Shown one piece after another: positions 1,952 to 49,383 of a stretch of 64,000 nt of DNA. The notes under the pieces are model-generated. The model was given only the letters and a program-made list of their open reading frames with translations. It searched no databases and was not told where the DNA came from. The position numbers were made by a program, and so were the translations under genes. Numbering within the stretch: the stretch's first letter is position 1; every line of letters begins with the position of its first letter. Location: IMG/VR virus record IMGVR_UViG_3300032220_001630, positions 39,136-103,135 of that record; one strand, 5' to 3'. Source of the DNA: a virus.

Positions 1952-3367
1952 ATGTGTGGAATTTTAGTAGCTATTAACCCGACAAAGGAAAGGATAGAAT
2001 CTATATCTCATAGAGGAATAGAACATTCTATTGTAAACGATCAAAATCTATATCTAGTTCATCACAGGCTTCCAATACAAACAGTGGATGGTGATAGCTG
2101 GTCACAGCCTATACAAATTGGCGAAAATAGGTGGCTGTTATTTAATGGCGAGATTTTCAATTATAGTGGCGGATTCGATTCGGATACAGCATACCTTCAA
2201 AATCTATTTAGTAGTTTTAATTTTAGTGGTATTGACATGCTACAAGCTATATACGAACCCCATATAGTTTCATGGGATGGGTTTTGGGCAATAGTTATGG
2301 TAGACACCAAAGAGAAAGAAATATATGCTTTTACTGATCCTTTGGGCAAAAAGGTTTTATACAAGAACGATCTTGGCGAAATCTGCTCAGAAATAAAAGG
2401 ATTATTTGAAAAGGACAATGAACCCGCACCAGATCCATCATTCTTCAGTGGTGTTATAAAGTGGGGATATTTAACCACCGATCAGACACCTTATGAAGGC
2501 ATAAAAAAACTACAACCTAATAGATTTTATAAATGGAATCTCTATAACCCATCAAAAATGGAAGTATCTGATCCATATTATAATTTTTACTCTTTTGAGG
2601 CAGGATTAGAAACATATGAAGATAGAATGGATTGGTTATGGAATAAACTTGAAAATTCAGTAGAATCAAGATTGATCTCTAAAAACTACCCGACATCTCT
2701 TCTGTTATCAGGGGGTTTAGATTCTGCCATTATTGCAGGTCTTCTTCTTAAACTCGGAGCAGATGTTCAGTTTTATTCTATATCCAACGGTGAAGATGAG
2801 CAATACGTAAAAGCATGTGAGGAATATTGGGGTGTTAAATCTATAAGATTAGATTACGATGTTGACATAGAAAGCGAAGAGGGTAAGAATAAAACACTAG
2901 AAATATATCAGAAATGGAATGAATCACCCATAGATATGGGAAGTGTTCTACCTCAATATCATTTATTTGATGCAATAAAAAAAGGATCTAAAACCAGGAT
3001 AGTTATTTCAGGAGATGGAGCTGATGAATTATTTGGAGGATATAGGAGAATTAATGAATACGATTCACAAGATTCAGACATCTTTCACGAATTAACTTCA
3101 TACCATCTACCAAGATTGGACAAGTTATCAATGGCACACACCTTGGAGCTTAGAAGTCCTTTTTTAAATCACGACATAGTAAGATTTGCTTTAACACTTC
3201 CTTTTGAAGAGAGAAAGAATAAAAAAATATTGAAGGATACTTTTAAAGGATTAGTTCCAGATTCAGTAATTGAAAGAAAAAAATTGCCTCTTAAAAATCA
3301 GATGATTGTAGAGGATCAAATTTCTTACAGAAAAAAGATAAAGGATTTATATCTTAAATCCATTTGA
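1952..3367 (+). CDS. asnB: Asparagine synthetase B-like glutamine amidotransferase
   Basis: MCGI (Ntn Cys), HRG, HHRLPI, FNGEIFNY, LLSGGLDS, SGDGADELFGGY, RLDKLSMAHTLELRSPFL. Confidence 0.92.
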   Translation: MCGILVAINPTKERIESISHRGIEHSIVNDQNLYLVHHRLPIQTVDGDSWSQPIQIGENRWLLFNGEIFNYSGGFDSDTAYLQNLFSSFNFSGIDMLQAIYEPHIVSWDGFWAIVMVDTKEKEIYAFTDPLGKKVLYKNDLGEICSEIKGLFEKDNEPAPDPSFFSGVIKWGYLTTDQTPYEGIKKLQPNRFYKWNLYNPSKMEVSDPYYNFYSFEAGLETYEDRMDWLWNKLENSVESRLISKNYPTSLLLSGGLDSAIIAGLLLKLGADVQFYSISNGEDEQYVKACEEYWGVKSIRLDYDVDIESEEGKNKTLEIYQKWNESPIDMGSVLPQYHLFDAIKKGSKTRIVISGDGADELFGGYRRINEYDSQDSDIFHELTSYHLPRLDKLSMAHTLELRSPFLNHDIVRFALTLPFEERKNKKILKDTFKGLVPDSVIERKKLPLKNQMIVEDQISYRKKIKDLYLKSI

Positions 3368-4828
3368 TAAAACTACCTCCACACCCGCAACAGGATCCCC
3401 TTTTGCGTCTTTTGGAGAATATCCGTCTGGTCTATCTGTTAATACGAAATCCTCTGAAGGATCTACTATTAAACCTGCGGAGCTTAGAAAATCTCTATTT
3501 AATAAAAGAGGTGTGCTTTTTTCAGTTCTATCTACTAGTGAAAACTTTACTTTCTTGTAAAGAATACCATTGAATTCAACATCAAGATTAACAACCGCTC
3601 TGTGGTGGATTTTTTCACCAACCTCAGCTTTAGATTGTCCTACGATTTTATTTACAAATTGCTGATTACCTAAAGTCCATACCACTTCTCCGTCTTTTTC
3701 TTCGATAGTATCTGCGTGTAACGAACAAGACGTAGCACCATTACCAGTATCTAATTTTCCTACAAACGTACCAACTCCAGAGATAGATATCAATTCTCTA
3801 AATCCTGTTACTTTCTTAGGCTTAACCCAGTTTTTTCTATCAATTAAGAAATCTACTACAATATCTGTTACTGGTATACCGGTTGTTTTTTCTATCCCCG
3901 TAGTTCCAGGAGATGCGTTAACTTCTAATACGTATGGGTTTTCTGTTCCTTTATCAACAATTATATCAACTCCACACCATAGACAACCTGTAGCTTTAGC
4001 AGATTCAATAGCTATTTTTTCTATCGATTCTGGTAGCTCTACTGTTTCAGTGTCACCACCGAGTGAGAAGTTAGTTCTAAAATCGCCTTTAATCTTAATT
4101 CTTTTCATCGCTGCGATGACTTTGTACTCTCTTCCAGACATACCATCAGATTCAGCAATTACGTGAATTCTTAAGTCATATTCAGCTTCGATTTTTTCTT
4201 GTAAAACTATCTCAGTTCCTGGTGCTAAATGCCATAAAGCTTGAAGAGTAGAAACTAATGATGGTCTCGAATCAATCATGAATACTCCTATACCTTTAGT
4301 TCCTGAAAGAAACTTACATACTACAGGGTATTTTCCACCAACATCTTCAACAGCCTTATCTATATCTGCCTCAGAAGATATTAAAGATGTTTTAGGTACG
4401 GGGATATTATTTAATTGAAGCTTTCTTGTTGTTTGTAATTTATCCTCACATATGATAACAGAATCATAAGAGTTAACACAAGGAAAACCTAAATCTTCCA
4501 TTTTCTTAAAGAATCCCTTAGCAGCATTATTTTTTATGGAAGATCTTCTAGTTAGAACTATTGTACGATCAAGATAAATTTCTTGCTGTTTATCTCCTCT
4601 ACTAGATATAAGATATGTTCCTTTTGGTGTTTTTTGAATAGATCCTTTTTCTGTATCTACTATAATACATTTTAAACCTTTCTCCTCACATATCTTCATT
4701 ATTTTGTCAGTGGTTGGAGCATTCTTTAGGGTCTTACCTAATTTAGTGGTTAGCACAACTACTGTTAAGGGTCTTTCTTTTCCTTTTACCCCTTTGAATA
4801 TAAATTTTTCTAGCAATGGATTATCCAT
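3347..4828 (-). CDS. rimK: RimK-family ATP-grasp ligase fused to a C-terminal retropepsin-like (RimB / 'ATP-dependent Zn protease' family) peptidase
   Basis: ATP-grasp motifs KFLSGTKGIGV, LQEKI, DLRIHV, DFRTNFSLGG, GVDII, LEVNASPG. The C-terminal domain has KLDTGN and LLLNRDFL. Confidence 0.88.
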   Translation of the reverse strand: MDNPLLEKFIFKGVKGKERPLTVVVLTTKLGKTLKNAPTTDKIMKICEEKGLKCIIVDTEKGSIQKTPKGTYLISSRGDKQQEIYLDRTIVLTRRSSIKNNAAKGFFKKMEDLGFPCVNSYDSVIICEDKLQTTRKLQLNNIPVPKTSLISSEADIDKAVEDVGGKYPVVCKFLSGTKGIGVFMIDSRPSLVSTLQALWHLAPGTEIVLQEKIEAEYDLRIHVIAESDGMSGREYKVIAAMKRIKIKGDFRTNFSLGGDTETVELPESIEKIAIESAKATGCLWCGVDIIVDKGTENPYVLEVNASPGTTGIEKTTGIPVTDIVVDFLIDRKNWVKPKKVTGFRELISISGVGTFVGKLDTGNGATSCSLHADTIEEKDGEVVWTLGNQQFVNKIVGQSKAEVGEKIHHRAVVNLDVEFNGILYKKVKFSLVDRTEKSTPLLLNRDFLSSAGLIVDPSEDFVLTDRPDGYSPKDAKGDPVAGVEVVLSNGFKI

Positions 4829-36439: not shown

Positions 36440-36468
36440 GAAACTCATAAATCTTAATCAGGTATAAT
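36440..36468 (+). promoter_or_regulatory. Class II promoter-like motif before the gp5-like gene
   Basis: GAAAC-N18-TATAAT, 5 nt before ATG 36474. Confidence 0.6.
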
Positions 36469-36473
36469 TAAAT

Positions 36474-37343
36474 ATGTTAATCACAAGAGATAAATTAGTT
36501 AGCAAGGATTTAGATGCAGGCCATTATCTGGGTGTTGTCGTTGACAATAAAGACCCGGAATTTAGAGGAAGAGCTAAAATAAGAGTTTTTGGTACTTTCG
36601 ATGATATAGAGGATGCAGATCTTCCTTGGTCTCACCAATCATTTGAAATGAGCTACGGGCTTGGTGGTGGAAGTGGGAGAATGTCAGTTCCTAAATTGGG
36701 TTCAGTTGTTCATGTTGAATTCAATAATGGAAATATGTATAGCCCTGAATATAAAGCAGTTCAGGAACTTTCCCCAGATTTAATAGAAGAGATAAGAGCA
36801 AGTTACGACGGAGCTCATTCTGTGATCTATGACGGCATAGAAAGACTTAAAATGTACTATACTGTTCAGAAAGGGCTTGTAATCGATTTAAAGGAGTCTA
36901 AAATAATAATTAGGAATGATAATTCTATTCTTATAACTCACGCGGATGATTCTTCGTCTATAGAGTTAAAAGGAGGGAAGATAACTAAGTATGCAGACCA
37001 GGAGATAGAAAATACAGCAGTGACAAGAATAAAGCACTCATCTGAAGAAGTTTGGATGGACGGAAAAACAACTAACCTAGGTCACTCTCCAGTATTTTCT
37101 GCTGTTTGTGCAGAACCCTTATGGGATTTCTTAAAAAAGTTGGCAACCGCAGTAGATGCTAAAATGCCAGCTACTCCAAGTGTAAATTCTACACTTGCCT
37201 CTAGTTTTGAGCAATTAGCAACTAGTCAAACAGTAAGGGTCACAAGGGAAAATTCTCCTGAGGTTCCAACTGTTCCTGCTCAAAATAATTTCCCGGTTTC
37301 TTTACCTGCTACTGGTGCAGCTACCGGAACAACTGGAGGATAA
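36474..37343 (+). CDS. Baseplate central spike, gp5/VgrG-like (OB-fold plus beta-helix; no lysozyme domain)
   Basis: YLGVVVDNKDPEFRGRAKIRVFG, LPW, SVPKLGSVVHVEFNNG. Confidence 0.85.
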   Translation: MLITRDKLVSKDLDAGHYLGVVVDNKDPEFRGRAKIRVFGTFDDIEDADLPWSHQSFEMSYGLGGGSGRMSVPKLGSVVHVEFNNGNMYSPEYKAVQELSPDLIEEIRASYDGAHSVIYDGIERLKMYYTVQKGLVIDLKESKIIIRNDNSILITHADDSSSIELKGGKITKYADQEIENTAVTRIKHSSEEVWMDGKTTNLGHSPVFSAVCAEPLWDFLKKLATAVDAKMPATPSVNSTLASSFEQLATSQTVRVTRENSPEVPTVPAQNNFPVSLPATGAATGTTGG

Positions 37344-37344
37344 T

Positions 37345-40300
37345 ATGGCAACAGAAGATAGCATAGGAAGTAAGATAGATCAACTATTAGGTAAAGATTT
37401 TGAAAAATTAACTACCGATGAAATAGTTCAGACTATAATGGGGGAAAAAATAGATATCCCCTATGAGGATTTACAGTCTGAAGATGGATTCAATAAACAA
37501 CTTGAAATTGCAGACAAAGAGGTTGAAGCATTAGTTAAAGGCTTAGAACCAAAAAGTCCACCTATTCCTATGTCCAAAATAGAGGATCTCTCGTGTAAAT
37601 TTGAGGGCGATTCTCTTTATGCACAGATATTAATAGAGAGCATTAAGAAGGATAAATCTGATTTATATTTAGAACTAAAGAAATCTGGTGCCCTTGATGA
37701 AAAAACAATAACACCGGATGATCTTGGTATAAAAAGTTCTATTCCTTCATTAAAGAACGACAGAGAAATAACATCTTCTGGTATAATCAAATTTCTAGAG
37801 AATAATGATCCTTCATTTCTGGACGAAACAAACGAAAGAATTTTTGATAATTTAGACCCACTTTTGGTTGGGAAACCTTCAAACTCTGGATCTAGAAAGA
37901 AAAGAGAATTAAATATACTAGGATTTAAAATTCCTTTGGAATTTATAATGTCTGGTAAAAAAATAGTGCATGTTAAAATATCTGGACCTAAACTCAGCAA
38001 TAAGGAAGCTATAGATAAAATAAATCAAACATTAAGCGAGCAATACAAAAATAGCAAGCCGTGTGATTTTGATGGACTTGACGAAGCATCACAGGATACA
38101 GATAATGGAAATCAAGGGATCCCAGAAACTACAAGGATAGACGACTATGATTCCAATTTTTATCCTGAGGGAGATGATCCGATATTAGACCAAGATTGTG
38201 CACCAGGACTTCCCGAAGATCCTATAACAGGGGATGTCATATTAACAAAAGATGCTTTTGATGATTCTAAAGATGATTTTTGTGATCCTCCAGCTTATGA
38301 TTTTTCAGGATTAAATCCTGACGAACCTGATCCTGAAGCACCTCCAGTGGACGTGGATGCTATCCAAGCTTGTATAGATTCAGCTCTAGAAAAAGCTGAT
38401 AAGATAGACAACAATAGCAAGCTTTTAGGTAGATGGTCAATGATAGAAAAAAATCTCGAGGAGATATTGTATCACTATGAGATAATATGGGAATATCAAA
38501 GAAATTTTACTGAAAAATTTAGGAGTAGAGTTTCATTTAATGATTCAGGTAATCCAACTTCTCCTCAGGCAATAATACAGGCACTAACCTATGATGATCA
38601 ATCTAAGGAGCTAAATCTTCAAATAACAAAATCCCAAACTCTTCTCGATAACGATAAAAATATTTTTCTTCAAAACAATCCTATTTTTACTAGCTCCCTG
38701 TTCAATCTCACAGTTTTAGATTTAGAAGATATAAGTAATTACACACAACAGGAGGGATATAGTTTTATTCAAGATTATATTGATTCTGGGAATTCGATAA
38801 TACAATATGATGATGCGAAAAAGGATTGGCCAATTTCGGATGGTTATACTGAACTTGTCAATAATATACCAGACATAAGAGAGATTATAATTAAGGGAAA
38901 TTTTTTAGATGCTCTAAAAGAACAAAGACAAGAGGTTATTAATCAGAGAAAAACCAATCTAGATTTCTTATCCGATCAAAAAGGTCAAATTGTTACAATA
39001 GATAATATAGATCAGGTTATATCCTCTGCCGTTTACGGACAGGAAATAACCAATGATTCATTTAGAAGAGTATTTGAAAACATATATTCGCCTGGTGGAT
39101 ATGATTCTTATGGATACGATTTTATAAATTCATTAAAGAAATTCTCTGTTAGATTTAAAAATACTTCAGTTGATTCTTCAGATAGCGAATTAAAATTTGA
39201 GGTTTCTTTTATGGATAATTTTGGCCTTCCACTTCCATATAAGAGCACTAAGAAGCCAGGAAAAATATCAATGAAGGGATCTTCTTCAGAGCCTTTAAAA
39301 GAAGTTTCTGAACCTGATACTGAAAAGATAAAGATAGGTAACGAATTTGCAAACAATGGCGGATTGCTATCCAGTTATCCCAAGGACATTTTTAAAAGTT
39401 CTAGCTTTCTAAAGGTGAACAATCTAAAAGATGGACAGACTGATGTCGGAAAATTTTATGATTTCATAGAGAAGATAATTAAAACAAATGATAGTAAAAC
39501 ATCTATCATAAATTATATAAAAACAGAAAGAGGAATTTTATATGGTGAGTTAATTGAAAAATCTGGATCTAACTGGCTATTTTTTAATCCTGAAGAAAGA
39601 GGTGATAATGATGCTAGAGATCCTTCTAAATTAAGGCCATCTAGTTTTACTACCGACGGAGAGCCAAATGAAATCTTCTCAGATTTTTACGGTAACTTCA
39701 AACCTAAATGGGATACCAAATATCAGCAGAATAAATCTTCTTATATAGAACCAGAGATAGCATCTTTAAAAGCTAAAGCATTAAAAGCTGCAGAAGGAGC
39801 TGCAGCCACCGCGAATATTTCAGATTTTATTGCCCTTAGAATTTATAGAAACTATTTTGATATAAAATCGAAGATGGATCAAATAGAAGAAATTCTTCTA
39901 TTTGCTGCACAGAAAAGACAGGAGATACAAGATGGGCTTAGTCCTGAAGCTTTAGAAAAAGAATTCTCTGATATTAAATGTGCTGGAGCTTCCAACGGAG
40001 CAGCTGAACCAGGAGGTAATGACCCAGAAAATTGTCCACCTCCTTGCTGTGGTCCTGCAGGATCAGATTTTAAATCTGGTGGAAATTATTTATTATCTTC
40101 CCCACCAAGTTCAGATTGTCCTACTATATTTCAAAGATGTTGGTGGAAACAATTTTGTAAAGATGTTACTAAGGTTGGACTTCTTCCCTACCCTAACGGA
40201 TTACCCCCGATAGAAAATACTTCCTATTTTTTATCTGCTGGTCCATCAGTTAGACTTGGATTAAAATACTGGCCAGTTGGCTACCTTCCTCCTGCTTTTA

Positions 40301-42468
40301 TACCTATCCCTATACCTAATCCGGTAGACGGTCTTCCTTATATAAGAATACCTCTCCCTATGATATGGACAATTATACCACCTATAGTTATTCCTTTACC
40401 TTTTAATCTAGGAATATTGGTAATCTTTATACCCTTGATAGGTGGATTTATGCCTACACCTCTTGTTTATTTAAAAGAGTTTATCACTGGTAGTTCTTTA
40501 TTTTTAACAGGAATAAGAGGTCCAAGATTTATTCCGAGAAAATCTGATCCGACTTTAAAAGATCCTCTTGAGAAAATTAAACAAGCACTATCTTTTGGAA
40601 TTCCTGATAAGCTTATACCTCTTCCAGGATTTGGTAATGATAATCTAGATTCTCCTATGAGAATCATAACTGATATTCAAAGTAACTTTACTAAGATACT
40701 GGATAGCATACCCCCTCCTGGTGATATAGAGGAATTAAGAGATGTGCAACAAAAAGAGCTGGAAGTAAAAAATAGAATACTTTCGAAAAAGAAAGAATAT
40801 GAAAAAAAGGCTGCATTATTAGATGATCCTGCTCCTAATTTTGATCAAGATAAAGTTGAATTAGATCTTTTACTAAACGAAAGAAAAAACGCTTTAAAAC
40901 AAGTTATAAAGGACTATTTAGATAAAGGTATACCTAATCCTAAGTCTATCTATTTTCCGAAGGATAAGGACAAATTAAAGATCGATATACCGGGTATAGT
41001 AAAGTCATTGAGAATACTAAAAGAGCTTAAAGCTAGTTTTGTTCCAATAACATGTGGCTCTGATATTAATTTTAAGGATGAGATAAGAGAAGTTTTAAAG
41101 CTTGTAAAAATACCAACTCCCCCTAAATACATTTTAGAAAATTTAGATGTTTCTAATCCTAATAAGATATTTTTAAGAATTGATAAAGATCCTAGAACTA
41201 TGAGTGAGGATGAGTTCGAGGACCTTGTTAAGGGGATAAAAGCAACATCCTTAATTATAACACATATCTTACTGAGAGGTAATAAATTTTCTGTTGTTAA
41301 GAAGATTAGAAAAGGTGCATTTTCCATTATTGATGGATGCGATTACCAAGGACAGTTTGCATTTCCTCCAGTAAAGATAACTAATGCAGCTCCTACACCT
41401 CTTAAATTCTTGAAGATTCCTAATCCGATTCTTACTGCTATGTACTTAAGAATAATGGAGGGAATGGCTAAAGCTGATTATACGACAGAAGATTTTTCTA
41501 GATATGTTAGATATGATGGTGAAAATCCATTACTTGTTATAAGGGTTAAGGATCTTAAAAAATTAATATCTAAGAAATTGGGATTAAGTAGAAGAGGCCC
41601 TTTTGATCCAGAAAGACCTTTAGACAGAGAAGAACCTTTAATATCTAAGTTTCCACATCCTGAAGGTCCTTTATGTTGTCTTGAATCACTAAATGGTAGT
41701 TTTGGTAATGCTATTTCTGCTTTTGAAATGCCAACAGTTTTTCCACCAAAATCAGATCAGATAACTCAGACACAAGGTGTTGGTGGTATTATACAAATTA
41801 CTATCCCTGGAGCAGTAATAAAATCTTTTGCTGTAAATGTTATAACCAAATCTCTGGACGCTTTAATTGATCAGCTTTTTCCTGAGATCAACGATATAAA
41901 TTCTCCGAAATTTACAAATCTTCAGCCTCAGGATATACAGAAGATGGTAAGGAATATGATAAGAGAGAATTTCAATCCAGATTCTCCAAACATACCTGAA
42001 TTTTTAAATATTGCAAAAATCCCAATTATTCCTCCCGCAAGACCTACTGACATCATCGAGCAAGCCATAATTGGTATGGGTGCACCACCGCCTGCTAGAA
42101 TAGTCTATTCACTATTCTGGAAATATTTTAAAGGAGTTCCAAAAACTCCTTTATTGGAAAGTATAGTTAGACCTGCTATAGATCTATCTGGAAAGATATT
42201 GCCTAAAATTCCTTGGCCTTTGACAGTTCTTCTAGGAAGAAACGTTGTTAACCTTATTAACCCAATAATTATGTCTGATGACCATCCTTCTTGGAGAAGA
42301 ATGAGTTTGAAAAACACGTATTATGTAATCTATATAGATGAATTTTTAAGGAGTGCAGCAGATGTTTCTGGTCTTTTTAAATTCTTTCTAGGATCTGCAG
42401 ATCCTGTGTATCCTATACCAGAACTCCCATCTGAATTACAAAAAGCGTTTAATGTAAAAAAATATTAA
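37345..42468 (+). CDS. Very large (~1707 aa) hypothetical virion protein
   Basis: Single long ORF; ATG 37345 preferred because it lies 1 nt after the gp5 stop. Has acidic, coiled-coil, Cys-cluster and Pro/hydrophobic segments. Confidence 0.8.
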   Translation: MATEDSIGSKIDQLLGKDFEKLTTDEIVQTIMGEKIDIPYEDLQSEDGFNKQLEIADKEVEALVKGLEPKSPPIPMSKIEDLSCKFEGDSLYAQILIESIKKDKSDLYLELKKSGALDEKTITPDDLGIKSSIPSLKNDREITSSGIIKFLENNDPSFLDETNERIFDNLDPLLVGKPSNSGSRKKRELNILGFKIPLEFIMSGKKIVHVKISGPKLSNKEAIDKINQTLSEQYKNSKPCDFDGLDEASQDTDNGNQGIPETTRIDDYDSNFYPEGDDPILDQDCAPGLPEDPITGDVILTKDAFDDSKDDFCDPPAYDFSGLNPDEPDPEAPPVDVDAIQACIDSALEKADKIDNNSKLLGRWSMIEKNLEEILYHYEIIWEYQRNFTEKFRSRVSFNDSGNPTSPQAIIQALTYDDQSKELNLQITKSQTLLDNDKNIFLQNNPIFTSSLFNLTVLDLEDISNYTQQEGYSFIQDYIDSGNSIIQYDDAKKDWPISDGYTELVNNIPDIREIIIKGNFLDALKEQRQEVINQRKTNLDFLSDQKGQIVTIDNIDQVISSAVYGQEITNDSFRRVFENIYSPGGYDSYGYDFINSLKKFSVRFKNTSVDSSDSELKFEVSFMDNFGLPLPYKSTKKPGKISMKGSSSEPLKEVSEPDTEKIKIGNEFANNGGLLSSYPKDIFKSSSFLKVNNLKDGQTDVGKFYDFIEKIIKTNDSKTSIINYIKTERGILYGELIEKSGSNWLFFNPEERGDNDARDPSKLRPSSFTTDGEPNEIFSDFYGNFKPKWDTKYQQNKSSYIEPEIASLKAKALKAAEGAAATANISDFIALRIYRNYFDIKSKMDQIEEILLFAAQKRQEIQDGLSPEALEKEFSDIKCAGASNGAAEPGGNDPENCPPPCCGPAGSDFKSGGNYLLSSPPSSDCPTIFQRCWWKQFCKDVTKVGLLPYPNGLPPIENTSYFLSAGPSVRLGLKYWPVGYLPPAFIPIPIPNPVDGLPYIRIPLPMIWTIIPPIVIPLPFNLGILVIFIPLIGGFMPTPLVYLKEFITGSSLFLTGIRGPRFIPRKSDPTLKDPLEKIKQALSFGIPDKLIPLPGFGNDNLDSPMRIITDIQSNFTKILDSIPPPGDIEELRDVQQKELEVKNRILSKKKEYEKKAALLDDPAPNFDQDKVELDLLLNERKNALKQVIKDYLDKGIPNPKSIYFPKDKDKLKIDIPGIVKSLRILKELKASFVPITCGSDINFKDEIREVLKLVKIPTPPKYILENLDVSNPNKIFLRIDKDPRTMSEDEFEDLVKGIKATSLIITHILLRGNKFSVVKKIRKGAFSIIDGCDYQGQFAFPPVKITNAAPTPLKFLKIPNPILTAMYLRIMEGMAKADYTTEDFSRYVRYDGENPLLVIRVKDLKKLISKKLGLSRRGPFDPERPLDREEPLISKFPHPEGPLCCLESLNGSFGNAISAFEMPTVFPPKSDQITQTQGVGGIIQITIPGAVIKSFAVNVITKSLDALIDQLFPEINDINSPKFTNLQPQDIQKMVRNMIRENFNPDSPNIPEFLNIAKIPIIPPARPTDIIEQAIIGMGAPPPARIVYSLFWKYFKGVPKTPLLESIVRPAIDLSGKILPKIPWPLTVLLGRNVVNLINPIIMSDDHPSWRRMSLKNTYYVIYIDEFLRSAADVSGLFKFFLGSADPVYPIPELPSELQKAFNVKKY

Positions 42469-42475
42469 AAAAATG

Positions 42476-42504
42476 GAAATCTTTTTATCCTTCCACACTA
42501 AAAA
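42476..42504 (+). promoter_or_regulatory. Class II promoter-like motif before the S1 gene
   Basis: GAAAT-N18-TAAAAA followed by an A-rich leader. Confidence 0.45.
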
Positions 42505-42528
42505 CAATAATACAAACTAAAGAAGTAA

Positions 42529-43644
42529 ATGAAAAGAAAAAATTATACTTGCTTCGAATATGAGGCGGGAGAAAGGGAAATACTAGAAAAGAAATATTCT
42601 CAGTATTTTCCTGCGGATCTTCCAAATGATTTTAGTGGAAAAGACTTGACACAGAATTCTTCAGCTAGAGTTATAATTACTCAATTTGATAGCAACTCAG
42701 GAGTTGCAGTAGGAGAAACAATGTTTGGTCAATCTGTCATAATAGATACAAACAAAGAAGAGAAGAGCTTAAGAAAACTTGGATACCCTTCAATCGGTAT
42801 GGAAGCAGGCCAAGTATTAGATGTCGTAATTTATAAAGATCCCTCAGGGACTTTTAACGGATCAGTATCTGCAGGATACGAAAAAGCTCTAAAACAAGAA
42901 TTACATAAATCTATCGTAAAAGAAGATTGCGCATATAGAATAAAAGTTAAATCTGTATGTAATGGAGGTTTCATGGTGGATCTTTCAGGAATAGAATGTT
43001 TTCTTCCTGGTAGTTTAGCAGCTGCTAACAGAATCATGAATTTTGCAGACTATGTAGGGAAAGAACTACACGTAATGATTGAGGTATACGACCAAAGAAG
43101 GGATATATTTGTCGTATCTTTCAAAAAATATCTAAAGAAGATCATAGACTCTGAAGTACAGAATCTTTCTTTCTCTAATAAATATGAGGGAATAGTTACT
43201 GGGTCTTCAAGTACTGGTGTTTTTGTTGAATGGGATGAAATCTTTACTGGTATCGTTCCTTTTGAAGATTCAACAAAAGAATCATTGGATAAATTAAAAC
43301 CAGGAGATTCTTTAAGTTTCTATGTTGTAGATATTAAGAATCCACAAAGAGTAGTTCTTTCTATCACAGAACCAAATGGAAAACTTAAGAATATCCAGGA
43401 ATTGAAAGATTCATCTGAGGATGTTTTAGGAGAAAATTCTGATCTCAAAGTTTATAAAGCAGAAATCTCTAAAGTGAAAACTTTTGGTGTATTTGTTAAA
43501 TTAGAGAACGGACTAACAGGTCTAATAGAAAAAGAAAGATTAGCAAATTCGATTAAAGAATATGAAATCGGACAATTAATAGATTGCTCGGTTTTAAGCG
43601 TTGATCTATCAAATCTTAAGGTTCAGTTAGTAGAAGTAGAATAA
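42529..43644 (+). CDS. rpsA: Ribosomal protein S1 homologue (3-4 S1 domains)
   Basis: NGGFMVDLSGIECFLPGSL, VGKELHVMI, VVSFKK, YEGIVTG..STGVFVE, KVKTFGVFVKLENGLTGLI. Confidence 0.8.
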   Translation: MKRKNYTCFEYEAGEREILEKKYSQYFPADLPNDFSGKDLTQNSSARVIITQFDSNSGVAVGETMFGQSVIIDTNKEEKSLRKLGYPSIGMEAGQVLDVVIYKDPSGTFNGSVSAGYEKALKQELHKSIVKEDCAYRIKVKSVCNGGFMVDLSGIECFLPGSLAAANRIMNFADYVGKELHVMIEVYDQRRDIFVVSFKKYLKKIIDSEVQNLSFSNKYEGIVTGSSSTGVFVEWDEIFTGIVPFEDSTKESLDKLKPGDSLSFYVVDIKNPQRVVLSITEPNGKLKNIQELKDSSEDVLGENSDLKVYKAEISKVKTFGVFVKLENGLTGLIEKERLANSIKEYEIGQLIDCSVLSVDLSNLKVQLVEVE

Positions 43645-43664
43645 ACCCTGTTTTTATATTTGAG

Positions 43665-43697
43665 AAAGAGCTTTACCTTACGTAAAGCTCTTTTTTT
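43665..43697 (+). terminator. Rho-independent terminator after the S1 gene
   Basis: 12-bp stem AAAGAGCTTTAC-cttac-GTAAAGCTCTTT followed by a T-run. Confidence 0.88.
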
Positions 43698-43732
43698 GTA
43701 AGTCTCCTTATAAATTTTATATTTCTTCTCGT

Positions 43733-43741
43733 GAATATATA
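43733..43741 (+). promoter_or_regulatory. Class I motif
   Basis: GAATATATA-gtgt-ATG(43746). Confidence 0.65.
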
Positions 43742-43745
43742 GTGT

Positions 43746-45185
43746 ATGAATTTAAGTAGTATAGATTTTTTTTATTCTGCCAAAATAGGTTTCGAGTTTG
43801 AGTTCTATAGCAACTTGAATAGGAACGAGATAGTTGAAAATTTAAGAAAGTCCATAGGTAAAAAAATCCTACTTTTTAATAAGTACCATTCTAATTTTAA
43901 ACCAACCAAGGATATTTTTAAGTTGGAGCCGGATTATTCTGGCGGATCTAAAATGGTAGAGTTAATTACGGGACCACTCCCTTATTTTGAAGCCATTCCT
44001 TTATTGATAAGAATACTCAAATGGATAGACGTAAATGGGTACACTGATAAAAGATGTGCTTTCCAATTTGGGATTAGTATAGACACTTCGATATTTCCGG
44101 AGGTTCCTCCTGTTAGCAAGCTTAACATGCTGAAATTTATTCTTGGATTCGATGAGAATGTCATTTATAAAAGATTTCCAGAGAGAGCAAATTCCCTTTA
44201 TGCTAAGTCAATAAAAAGAGTTACTCCTACTAATAAATTTGTAGATCCCTCTAATATTTCTTTCATAGACAAGAATCTGTTCAATGTACCGGTTGAAAAA
44301 AATATGGGGATAAACTTCCTTAAACTTCCCGAGGGATATTTTGAAGTTAGATATTTAGGAGGAAACGATTATCAGAAAAAATACACTTCTATAAAAGAGG
44401 TGATAGATTACATTATTACCTATACCTTCCAGGTATTACAGACCAATGATCTTTTTACAGATAACGATCTTAAGATCCTTAAGATGTTTCTTTCAGAGAT
44501 TTATAAGAACGCATCAACTTTCATAGATCCTGAATCATTCCAAAAAAATTATCCTCATATGAATATTATGGTGGATTTAAGATCTGACCCACAGATTTTA
44601 AGAACTTTCTTCCTTAGTATAAGAGAAGTTCTTTATGATCTAATAGTTGAGAATAACATAAAGGAAGGATTGGTTAATTACGACAGCAACTTAGGAAAAT
44701 ACCAACTTAAGGAAATAAAAACTTCTAAAGCTTACCTATTAAAAGACTATGATATTCTCGAAAGTGAAGTATCTGGTAACCTTTTGAATTGTAGAATTTT
44801 TTCCACTAAGATATCTGATAGTACGCTAGAAGACTGTGATTTAATTAACAGTAACGAAGTTTATAGGTCTAAGCTAATGTATAGTGATATAATGTTCAGT
44901 AACGTTATACACGACAGCTATATTGACAATAAGACGAAGGAAATAAACTGTGAGGTTTTTGGAGGAATAATAAGATCTGGATTTATTGGGCAGCTTGCTA
45001 CAATATCTCCAGAAACTGAAATAGTTAATGATGCAGAGGACGATAAGAAAATGAAGGGGTCTTCTAAGAAAAGATTATTCCCGAATAGAAATGATTCTCA
45101 GGATTCTCCACTTCAAACTATTTTTAAAGACAACAATACTAAGCCATCTGGGATACCAGGGGTAAGATTCAATCAAAGCAACTAA
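43746..45185 (+). CDS. Amidoligase_2-like (COOH-NH2 ligase) protein with C-terminal beta-helix-like repeats
   Basis: IGFEFEF, LEPDYSGG, VELITGPL, GYTDKRC, GINF, FEVRYLGG, followed by short I/L-x-x-S/C repeats. Confidence 0.65.
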   Translation: MNLSSIDFFYSAKIGFEFEFYSNLNRNEIVENLRKSIGKKILLFNKYHSNFKPTKDIFKLEPDYSGGSKMVELITGPLPYFEAIPLLIRILKWIDVNGYTDKRCAFQFGISIDTSIFPEVPPVSKLNMLKFILGFDENVIYKRFPERANSLYAKSIKRVTPTNKFVDPSNISFIDKNLFNVPVEKNMGINFLKLPEGYFEVRYLGGNDYQKKYTSIKEVIDYIITYTFQVLQTNDLFTDNDLKILKMFLSEIYKNASTFIDPESFQKNYPHMNIMVDLRSDPQILRTFFLSIREVLYDLIVENNIKEGLVNYDSNLGKYQLKEIKTSKAYLLKDYDILESEVSGNLLNCRIFSTKISDSTLEDCDLINSNEVYRSKLMYSDIMFSNVIHDSYIDNKTKEINCEVFGGIIRSGFIGQLATISPETEIVNDAEDDKKMKGSSKKRLFPNRNDSQDSPLQTIFKDNNTKPSGIPGVRFNQSN

Positions 45186-47312: not shown

Positions 47313-47684
47313 ATGGCAAGATATTCAGAAATTTACCCTAGAAGTCCTGATGATCCTAATTATAAAGTTGGGCTTTTGCATACCGATGATGAGGTTGAAA
47401 TCCTAATCGGAATGATAAAGCAGTGCATGATGACTGCTCCAGGAGAGGTCCTAGGAGATCCTTATTTTGGAATAGATCTGGAGTCTCTTCTTTTCGATTT
47501 TGAGATTGATCAAAAAACCCTAGAAAGAGCTATAAGACTGCACCTTTTAACTTATGTTCCTTTAGCAGGGACTAAATATGATGTGGATTTTACTGTTGGA
47601 TTTTTTAAAGGTGAAACGAGAGATACTTGTGTCATTGATTTTGCTATAAGAGGAAACCCTATACTGGGGATTAAAATAATATAA
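47313..47684 (+). CDS. Baseplate wedge protein, gp25/GPW-like
   Basis: MTAPGEVLGDPYFGIDLESLLF...YVP. Confidence 0.82.
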   Translation: MARYSEIYPRSPDDPNYKVGLLHTDDEVEILIGMIKQCMMTAPGEVLGDPYFGIDLESLLFDFEIDQKTLERAIRLHLLTYVPLAGTKYDVDFTVGFFKGETRDTCVIDFAIRGNPILGIKII

Positions 47685-47685
47685 G

Positions 47686-49383
47686 ATGGATTTACTACAA
47701 AAAAATAAAGCGAAAATATCAGATCTGATAAGTCAAACATTTGATCTTATACAGGCTAGATATTCGATGTCAAACCAGCTATTCACGGTAGCTTCTGTTT
47801 GGGGACAGATCATATTTGTTCTAGACAACCTTTCTCAGTTTATCCTTTTCTTTATAGAGGATTCAATCACTGAGTTAAATATCAACCAGGCAACCAGAGA
47901 ATCTTCCATTTATGGTCTTGCTACTCTTGCAGGACACAACCCTACTCGAGCAATTTCTGCTAAAGGTGAGGTTGTTGTAACATGGAACGGAAAAGGATTT
48001 GAAGATATAGGTGGTGGAGCAATATTAATCCCTAATAACAGCGAGATTAAGTGTGTGAATAATGGAAAGATCTATCTTCTAAAATTACCTCAAGAGTATT
48101 TAAGAATAAATTTAGATCCTTCATCTAAAATAATAGCTTCGATAGTGGAAGGAACTATAAAAGTTAACCAGTACACTAGCGACGGTACAAAACTACAGAG
48201 CTTTAATATATCTGCAAGAGGAACTTCAAGTATAGAAAATTTTGAGGTTAGTGTTAAGGTCAATGGAGAGGAATGGAAAAAATACGATTCACTTTATGAT
48301 ATACCAAGAAATGCAAAGGGCTACATAGTAAAAAGCTCATTAATTTCGGGTATAGATATTTTCTTCGGAACTAATGACTTTGGATTTCCTCCTAATGCTG
48401 GAGCTATTATAGAAGTTACATATTTAGAGTCTACCGGGGCATTCGGTAATCTTTTAGTAGAAGACGCATATCAGGCATTAATGAATTTTGATTCTGATGG
48501 AACAGATCTTTTTGGAAGACAAATAACATTAAAAGATTATCTTCAAGTTTCTTGTAGCATTGCTCCTCAATTAGGTGCAAACCAAGAACCTGTTGACCTA
48601 ACAAGATTAATAGCTCCTAAAACTTCTAGAAGTTTTGTTTTAGCAAATCCAACTAACTATATTACTTTCTTTGAAAAGTTTGGACAATTTTCTATAATAG
48701 AAGCTTTTACAACATTTGATGACCAGTATATAGACGATGATAATATCATTTACTTAATCCTAGTCCCAGATATTTCATTAACTCTTAAGAGCAACGAAAC
48801 ATACTTTGACGTTCCTCTTTCTAGATTCAAATTAACTAAAACACAGACCGATAGAATTTATCAATTATTAGATGAGAGCGGTCAGAAAATAGTTACAACA
48901 GTAGTTAAAGTGCTAGATCCTTTATTGGTAAGATTCGTTGTTAACATAGCTATTACTATTTTCGAAGGAAATGATCCAGATACAATAAAATCACAGATTG
49001 TCAACATCTTAAGTGATTACTTCTTAAATATCAGAAGAAGAGATAAAATACCAAGATCTGATTTAATTGCTGCAATAGAAGGCATAGAAGGTATAGACTC
49101 TGTTTCCTTATATTTTGTTGGCGAGGAAAACGAAGCTGCAAAAACACAGAGTGCTAATTCACCAGAAATAGGATTTGATGAATTTGGAGATATAGTCATA
49201 GGTAAAGATCAAGTAGTAGTTATCTCTGGAGGATGGGAAGACAGAAATGGAATTTATTACGATTATGGAGCTAGTATGCAAACACTATCTTCTGTAAATA
49301 TAGATGTTAGATCTATAGTTCCAGTTACTTATAACACAAGGGTAAACAATATCCTTAAAAATTCACTAAAAACAGGTAATTAA
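47686..49383 (+). CDS. Baseplate wedge protein, gp6/baseplate-J-like
   Basis: ATRESSIYGLATLAGHNPTRAISAKG, IFFGTNDFG, IEVTYLESTGAFGN, SDLIAAIEGIEGIDSV. Confidence 0.82.
   Translation: MDLLQKNKAKISDLISQTFDLIQARYSMSNQLFTVASVWGQIIFVLDNLSQFILFFIEDSITELNINQATRESSIYGLATLAGHNPTRAISAKGEVVVTWNGKGFEDIGGGAILIPNNSEIKCVNNGKIYLLKLPQEYLRINLDPSSKIIASIVEGTIKVNQYTSDGTKLQSFNISARGTSSIENFEVSVKVNGEEWKKYDSLYDIPRNAKGYIVKSSLISGIDIFFGTNDFGFPPNAGAIIEVTYLESTGAFGNLLVEDAYQALMNFDSDGTDLFGRQITLKDYLQVSCSIAPQLGANQEPVDLTRLIAPKTSRSFVLANPTNYITFFEKFGQFSIIEAFTTFDDQYIDDDNIIYLILVPDISLTLKSNETYFDVPLSRFKLTKTQTDRIYQLLDESGQKIVTTVVKVLDPLLVRFVVNIAITIFEGNDPDTIKSQIVNILSDYFLNIRRRDKIPRSDLIAAIEGIEGIDSVSLYFVGEENEAAKTQSANSPEIGFDEFGDIVIGKDQVVVISGGWEDRNGIYYDYGASMQTLSSVNIDVRSIVPVTYNTRVNNILKNSLKTGN

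Follow-up and report, generated by a model that had tools for sequence, protein, structure and literature searches.

A gene for a shortened derivative of ribosomal protein bS1 is encoded in the window, the 64-kb stretch of DNA analysed here, which is the last 64 kb of the 103-kb IMG/VR phage record IMGVR_UViG_3300032220_001630 (33.7% G+C; 36% complete by CheckV). The source is probably a large uncultured phage of Bacteroidota. The reading that we lean towards, with slightly more confidence than doubt, is that the phage-encoded protein docks on the host 30S subunit at the uS2 site normally taken by host bS1 and shifts initiation toward phage messages. Two RNA-binding domains would help to recruit mRNAs that have A-rich leaders and no Shine-Dalgarno sites, in a phylum whose initiation depends on bS1, and the gene would have been inherited vertically in Bacteroidota jumbo and huge phages related to LR756500 and Lak. 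The gene and the domains of its product (positions in amino acids, aa) are as follows.

42529-43644, + strand: phage S1 homologue of 371 aa, ATG start, acidic (isoelectric point, pI, 5.1), under purifying selection
42565-42606, + strand: N-terminal helix, aa 13-26, with invariant Y11 and Y23 nearby, resembling the N-terminal segment of Bacteroidota bS1
42658-42864, + strand: OB1, aa 44-112, divergent, with a family-specific invariant loop (E63, G67, Q68)
42934-43119, + strand: OB2, aa 136-197, the most conserved part (GGFMV, FLPGSLAAANRI, FVVSFKKYL), orthologous to bS1 OB2
43180-43362, + strand: OB3, aa 218-278, S1 fold with a partly degenerate RNA-binding face, invariant FVEW, D268 and R274
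43450-43635, + strand: OB4, aa 308-369, canonical RNA-binding S1 domain, closest to bS1 OB4 and OB5

The sequence-only reading had described the product as an S1 homologue shorter than six-domain bS1, and this proved correct. The Pfam S1 model PF00575 matches the protein over three stretches with 68 bits (gathering cut-off 22, E 9e-19); among the single domains OB4 scores 32.9 bits and OB3 22.2 bits. An AlphaFold model built with 23 family members (predicted local distance difference test, pLDDT, 82) has the N-terminal helix and four OB folds with linker helices between them. The ratio of nonsynonymous to synonymous substitution rates (dN/dS) is 0.07-0.19, and dN is lowest in OB2. A PHROGs search with the protein gave no useful family.

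In a search of solved structures the best match was E. coli bS1 bound to 30S (9gut_B, E 2e-22), and OB1-OB2 chains were among the matches, with template modelling (TM) scores of 0.67-0.70 (9guq_B, TM 0.70). The PDB entry 28jw/9tvu, named 'Ribosomal protein S1 homologue', was set aside, as its protein belongs to the Chlamydomonas chlororibosome and not to a phage. The rpsA model TIGR00717 aligns colinearly with aa 89-367 of the phage protein (86.6 bits, cut-off 577), and the alignments with E. coli bS1 and with a 591-aa S1 are colinear as well. The bS1 reference set, taken from 21 Bacteroidota genomes, scores 520-626 bits on the same model.

Hidden Markov models (HMMs) made from the phage family were then compared domain by domain with Bacteroidota bS1. 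The OB2 model matched OB2 in 18/18 Bacteroidota bS1 proteins (mean 27 bits) and no other domain. The bS1 OB2 signature (GGF...FLPGS) is present, GGFMV and FLPGS being invariant in the phage family. F148 and F158, also invariant, are the equivalents of E. coli F120 and F130, whose roles in bS1 have been described (PMC10123108). The model of the last phage domain matched OB4 and OB5 about equally, with 22-26 bits, and that of the third gave weak matches to OB5 and OB4. Four of the five classical RNA-binding positions are kept in OB4 (F319, F322, D359, K364), and the usual His is E334. OB3, as we read it against the Bycroft positions, keeps three.

The N-terminus gave a similar picture. A model of the first 40 phage residues matches the bS1 segment just before OB1, and when it was run against 2366 open reading frames (ORFs), Bacteroidota bS1 N-termini made up 15 of the top 16 non-self matches (E 1.3e-5 to 0.2). 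Aligned with Bacteroidota bS1, the invariant Y11 and Y23 coincide with the two tyrosines conserved in its N-terminal helix. By sequence and model, the protein has a helix with aromatics of the kind that anchors bS1 on uS2. With Bacteroidota bS1 it further shares the F120/F130 equivalents of OB2, tandem OB folds with linker helices and an acidic pI. Unlike bS1, it has four domains rather than the six usual in Gram-negative bacteria, a strongly diverged OB1 with its own loop, and an insert of 10-13 aa between helix and OB1; in place of OB3-OB6 there are two domains after OB2, resembling OB4 and OB5 and not OB3 and OB4. Judged by these sequence comparisons, the phage protein derives from bS1, without being an rpsA equivalog, and OB5 and OB6 are absent. 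The comparisons support a shortened bS1 that retains the parts which bS1 uses for docking on uS2.

Docking was modelled by complex prediction with phage S1 aa 1-135 (family alignment) and uS2 of Flavobacterium johnsoniae (Swiss-Prot), together with three controls. This uS2 is a stand-in for that of the host; it was used because a search for uS2 in the incomplete metagenome-assembled genome (MAG) of a Saprospirales bacterium, with which a related phage contig is binned, did not find it. The S1-uS2 prediction scored 0.74 and the best control 0.00, against a score mark reached by 58/80 solved complexes and 2/110 mismatched pairs. The runs share at least 95% of contacts, and the partner pLDDT is at least 79. 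Confident contacts on uS2 lie at residues 16-20, 29-37 and 204-210, and on the phage side at residues 3-8, in the helix at 19-27 and in the family-specific loop around E63-Q68. The N-terminal helix is predicted to touch uS2 29-37, and the OB1 loop the 204-210 region. These are the same three sites as in E. coli, where Phe5 and Phe9 of the bS1 helix stack on uS2 Phe32, the OB1 loop enters the zinc pocket of uS2 (188, 203-205), and Phe79 stacks on His18 (PMC10123108). The prediction supports binding without demonstrating it, and taken with the sequence evidence suggests that the phage S1 probably sits on host ribosomes.

The second part of the proposed mechanism concerns the phage messages. The regulatory features around the gene are these.

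42474-42504, + strand: 'class II' promoter-like motif, TGGAAAT at 42474-42480, 18 nucleotides (nt), TAAAAA at 42499-42504
42510-42517, + strand: conserved ATACAAAC, just 3' of the class II motif
43662-43699, + strand: intrinsic terminator, a 15-bp hairpin at 43662-43696 with a 5-nt loop, then the T run TTTTTTTGT
43733-43741, + strand: late-type 'class I' motif GAATATATA, 4 nt before the ATG of the next gene

The S1 gene had been credited with a class II motif of its own and a strong terminator, and the phage with leaderless or short A-rich late mRNAs; the motif, the terminator and short A-rich leaders are indeed seen in the sequence. Almost every distinct locus in the near clade of relatives keeps the motif, in its general form TGGAAAT, ~18 nt, TAnAA, in front of S1; L042/L043 read GGTGAAAT with different spacing. 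Matches to the class II motif lie just upstream of co-oriented starts in 12/39 cases (binomial P 1.6e-11), and those to the late-type GATATATA motif in 14/29 (P 1.8e-16); overall GATATATA counts are not above shuffle expectation, and only the positions are non-random. The S1 hairpin has a predicted folding energy of -18.9 kcal/mol (z -6.1), with 0/200 shuffles equally stable, and is a stable, G+C-containing hairpin followed directly by a T run, as in an intrinsic terminator. A consensus terminator scan did not report it, as pairing between the A and T runs can consume the T tail; folding revealed it.

The predicted S1 leader is ~15-20 nt to the ATG, A-rich and without a Shine-Dalgarno site. 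The same is seen across the contig: the 30 nt upstream of 96 ORFs of the 103-kb contig are A/T-rich, and inspection found no recurrent GGAGG-type motif in them. Upstream of a gp5-like structural gene (36440-36476 and L003-L050) there is a motif of the same class as that of S1, reading GAAAC or GAAAAC, 17-18 nt, TATAAT, and conserved across the near clade. The sequence implies a leaderless or nearly leaderless mRNA for this gene, because the motif ends 5-8 nt before the ATG.

In one relative, L030 (L030:11111-12760, IMGVR_UViG_3300027736_000280), an insertion of ~1.6 kb splits the arms of the S1 terminator hairpin. It carries a metK-like (S-adenosylmethionine synthetase) gene, is higher in G+C and looks like a moron at the terminator.

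Several points weigh against ribosomal docking and a shift of initiation. The phage S1 scores far under every curated rpsA cut-off, and its OB1 has no significant sequence match among bacterial OB domains. Docking is argued from sequence and modelling, and the pass of the complex prediction may partly be model memory, because bS1-uS2 complexes are solved. S1 domains are common in RNA-binding proteins that work off the ribosome. The gene's place among virion genes, and its late-type motif or coupling to structural genes in relatives, are a poor fit to an early takeover. Competition with host bS1 and any change in the choice of mRNA are put forward here as predictions.

One alternative is that phage S1 displaces host bS1 to give specialised ribosomes favouring messages with very short or absent leaders after the phage promoter motifs. 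A changed acceptance of 5' ends would be expected because OB5 and OB6 are absent and OB1 and OB3 are altered. We regard this as unlikely; in a bolder variant the phage S1 would be packaged and delivered with the DNA, and the switch would act from the first minute.

Another alternative is that phage S1 acts as a dominant-negative blocker, filling the uS2 site to exclude host bS1, so that leadered host messages are turned off and phage messages with no leader or a very short one still initiate; the idea of the sequence-only reading takes a sharper form here. In E. coli, Byrgazov and co-workers reportedly found that overproduced N-terminal bS1 fragments inhibit translation of leadered but not leaderless mRNA. 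The docking parts are indeed the best conserved, OB5 and OB6 are missing, and the RNA face of OB3 is degenerate; several promoter-like motifs, including those of the gp5-like gene and of the amidoligase-like gene that follows S1, stop 4-8 nt short of the ATG, a sign of mRNAs with no leader or almost none. However, OB4 keeps its four RNA-binding positions under purifying selection, which argues for RNA binding over mere blocking, and the S1 gene itself would have a leader of ~15-20 nt. Blocking as the main role is improbable in our view.

An off-ribosome role, in which the protein would protect mRNA, serve as an RNA chaperone or assist a phage nuclease, polymerase or replication enzyme as its cofactor, appears just as improbable. 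Host bS1 is a cofactor of T4 RegB and of Q-beta replicase. The replicase uses bS1 OB1-OB2 for protein contacts, and 4q7j and 4r71 are among the structure matches of the phage protein. Many proteins use S1 repeats away from the ribosome, and PNPase, RNase R and GSP13-type models are among the NCBIfam matches. For related proteins, Al-Shayeb et al. did not decide between action 'on or off the ribosome' (PMC7162821). An off-ribosome factor, however, leaves the uS2-binding helix motif, the OB2 signature and the predicted uS2 interface at the known sites unexplained.

The genes around S1 are virion genes, as the sequence-only reading had noted: a gp5-like hub lies upstream, and neck and baseplate genes, including a gp7-like one, lie downstream.

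36474-37343, + strand: gp5-like baseplate hub OB domain, upstream of S1
37315-42468, + strand: variable protein of 1717 aa, directly upstream of S1
43746-45185, + strand: amidoligase-like gene, glutamine-synthetase/YbdK/PafA-like fold and pentapeptide-type beta-helix
45187-45966, + strand: gp13-like neck or adaptor gene, downstream of S1
47313-47684, strand unstated: gp25-like baseplate gene, downstream of S1
47686-49383, strand unstated: gp6-like wedge gene, downstream of S1

Gene order was compared in IMG/VR loci. The order hub, large variable protein, S1, amidoligase-like, neck, gp25, gp6, gp7 is kept in 48/48 close loci (S1 51-74% identical), in a sister clade (S1 36-40% identical) and in the 462-kb LR756500 (S1 28% identical), where only the 1717-aa protein is missing. 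S1 changes faster than the structural genes next to it in both the near and the sister clade. In Lak and phages of 630-735 kb, S1 is retained at a distance from the genes for baseplate, neck and amidoligase; the 630-735 kb phages have their amidoligase-like and neck genes scattered, and neither was detected in Lak. The S1 gene is thus old and vertically inherited among these relatives, and its function is not tied to a place in the baseplate block, because Lak and the 630-735 kb phages keep it elsewhere. The 1717-aa protein is the fastest-evolving gene of the block (48-73% identity, neighbours 74-96%). In the sister clade a different protein of ~950 aa replaces it between hub and S1.

Two claims about S1 expression were weakened by the comparison of clades. 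The first was that S1 forms a stand-alone unit. Across the outgroup clade and for most near-clade relatives, the stop codon of S1 either overlaps the amidoligase-like start (often TTG) or lies 1-4 nt from it, while the hairpin terminator and GAATATATA are present in four small subclades, including that of the window. Because overlap or abutment prevails in most relatives and in the outgroup, the sequences indicate that translational coupling of S1 to the amidoligase-like gene is the ancestral state, and that the terminator and late motif are a derived insertion.

The second claim was that S1 is expressed before the late genes. The gp5-like hub has the same motif class in front of it as S1, and 10/10 distinct loci of the sister clade carry a late-type GATATATA motif ~30 nt upstream of S1. 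The best reading of S1 is a gene expressed in the structural-gene period rather than an earlier switch, because in relatives it is predicted to be co-transcribed with neck genes or stands behind a late-type motif. The promoter class has been swapped at the orthologous position, with GATATATA in the sister clade (L054-L062, L078) and TGGAAAT-N18-TAnAA in the clade of the window.

A virion-associated role, in which S1 is packaged and delivered with the DNA to act on ribosomes at the start of infection, or serves as an OB-fold component of tail assembly or structure, would suit the hub-neck position fixed down to 28% identity, the late-type motif of the sister clade and the ancestral coupling to amidoligase-like and neck genes, but is very improbable given that Lak and the 630-735 kb phages keep S1 away from those genes and that no packaging signal was identified.

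The S1 family is, from the sequence searches, large and phage-specific. A word-indexed search found more than 120 homologues with 50-95% identity, all of 345-405 aa, on contigs of up to 320 kb. An exhaustive HMMER search gave 1622 clusters (50% identity) at E <=0.001 and 367 at E <=1e-10; among the best 150 clusters, all but a few are 340-450 aa long, and the named members are called 'ribosomal protein S1' only and come from metagenomic contigs of up to 145 kb. Signature peptides of the family were found in 1 of 185,579 species genomes, and that match is a syntenic phage contig. In public phage records, tblastn found homologues in LR756500-4, LR745206 and all 15 Lak records (27-39% identity, E 2e-29 to 5e-17). 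Each related phage genome checked has exactly one S1-repeat gene.

Relatives are 230-248 kb at 85% completeness, and their CheckV estimates put the genomes of the lineage at ~280-290 kb. A baseplate wedge gene links the source phage to LR756500-4, LR745206 and Lak and, more distantly, to phages of Flavobacterium, Tenacibaculum and Chryseobacterium. This kinship and the lack of Shine-Dalgarno sites point to a Bacteroidota host. The contig with the signature peptides, L078 (CALAZP010000190.1, 64.2 kb), has the order hub, S1, amidoligase, neck, baseplate and was binned with the uncultured Saprospirales MAG mentioned above, whose own bS1 is 589 aa long. Either the contig was binned there in error, or it hints at Saprospirales hosts.

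That such proteins may intercept initiation has been proposed before. Al-Shayeb et al. (2020, Nature, PMC7162821) reported a 'possible rpS1' in huge phages, linked it to missing Shine-Dalgarno sites and proposed a hijack of the ribosome, including replacement of host bS1 and mRNA choice. The source phage agrees with their description, having a homologue with several S1 domains on a large phage genome largely devoid of Shine-Dalgarno sites. The huge-phage proteins (LR756500-LR756504, LR745206, Prevotella Lak) are homologous to that of the window and belong to the same size class (357-394 aa), and their hosts appear to be Bacteroidota. LR756500 shares the order hub, S1, amidoligase-like, neck. 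They differ in that the source lineage is smaller and its S1 has its own terminator, and the 540-735 kb phages have their S1 outside the baseplate block.

Firmicutes four-domain S1 (NF005208, PRK06676) is similar in length and domain number and is colinear with phage aa 91-367, but the phage protein scores 72.8 bits on NF005208 (cut-off 368) and keeps a docking helix of the Bacteroidota type. Firmicutes four-domain S1 is reported to bind ribosomes weakly. The S1-annotated proteins of uncultured phages A0A7S9STL2, A0A8D9CG03 and A0A6J5NIG6 (UniProt/BFVD, 373-385 aa) are similar in kind, and the BFVD entries match the model of the phage S1 at E 2e-24 to 3e-31. Another multi-domain, virus-encoded bS1 was described in 2026 in the jumbo cyanophage PhiMa05, where it reportedly groups with Vampirovibrio ribosomal proteins and adjoins other ribosomal protein genes (PMC13157829). 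The source phage differs here, as S1 is the sole ribosomal-protein-like gene detected on it; bS21 was searched for in the source contig and four related genomes and not found, and no tRNA genes were found in the 64-kb window. Mizuno et al. (2019) set S1 aside as ambiguous.

Virus-encoded ribosomal proteins blur the line between virus and cell, but bench support is limited to bS21 and a few others. Among ribosomal proteins, S1 alone selects mRNAs directly, and Bacteroidota depend on this because they make little use of Shine-Dalgarno pairing. The core idea of the sequence-only reading, that a phage S1 could replace host bS1 and bias ribosomes toward phage messages, is plausible and is now better founded at the docking end. 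The present analysis adds orthology assigned domain by domain, a controlled prediction of the interface with uS2, the ancestral link of S1 translation to the amidoligase-like gene, and the different promoter classes that the clades have at S1. The family points to Y11, Y23, E63-Q68, F148 and F158 as the residues of interest, and the 2020 hypothesis is directly testable in Flavobacterium johnsoniae, for which a ribosome structure and genetic tools are available.

S1 had also been proposed to form a ribosome-reprogramming set with a RimK fusion, for which the following gene was named.

3347-4828, - strand: RimK-domain gene, 130 bits, 38 kb from S1

The RimK domain is real, and both clades of ~280-kb phages conserve a protein of ~500 aa that has this ATP-grasp domain and co-occurs with S1; it was found in two 85%-complete relatives from both clades (G027:C1:29279-29869 and G028:C1:161683-162291). 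Searches of LR756500 and Lak-A1, both of which carry S1, showed that RimK is absent from them. A fixed S1-RimK set is not supported.

S1 and the amidoligase-like gene were also considered as an obligate pair. This idea was weakened: although the two overlap in two clades, they lie apart in the 630-735 kb phages, and in Lak, which has S1, no amidoligase homologue was detected. The amidoligase-like protein is modelled with a carboxylate-amine ligase fold of the glutamine-synthetase/YbdK/PafA type from aa 1 to ~300, followed by the beta-helix at aa ~305-415 and a disordered tail of 50 aa. Invariant in 15 homologues are E17, E19, E61, D63, E72, E200 and R202.

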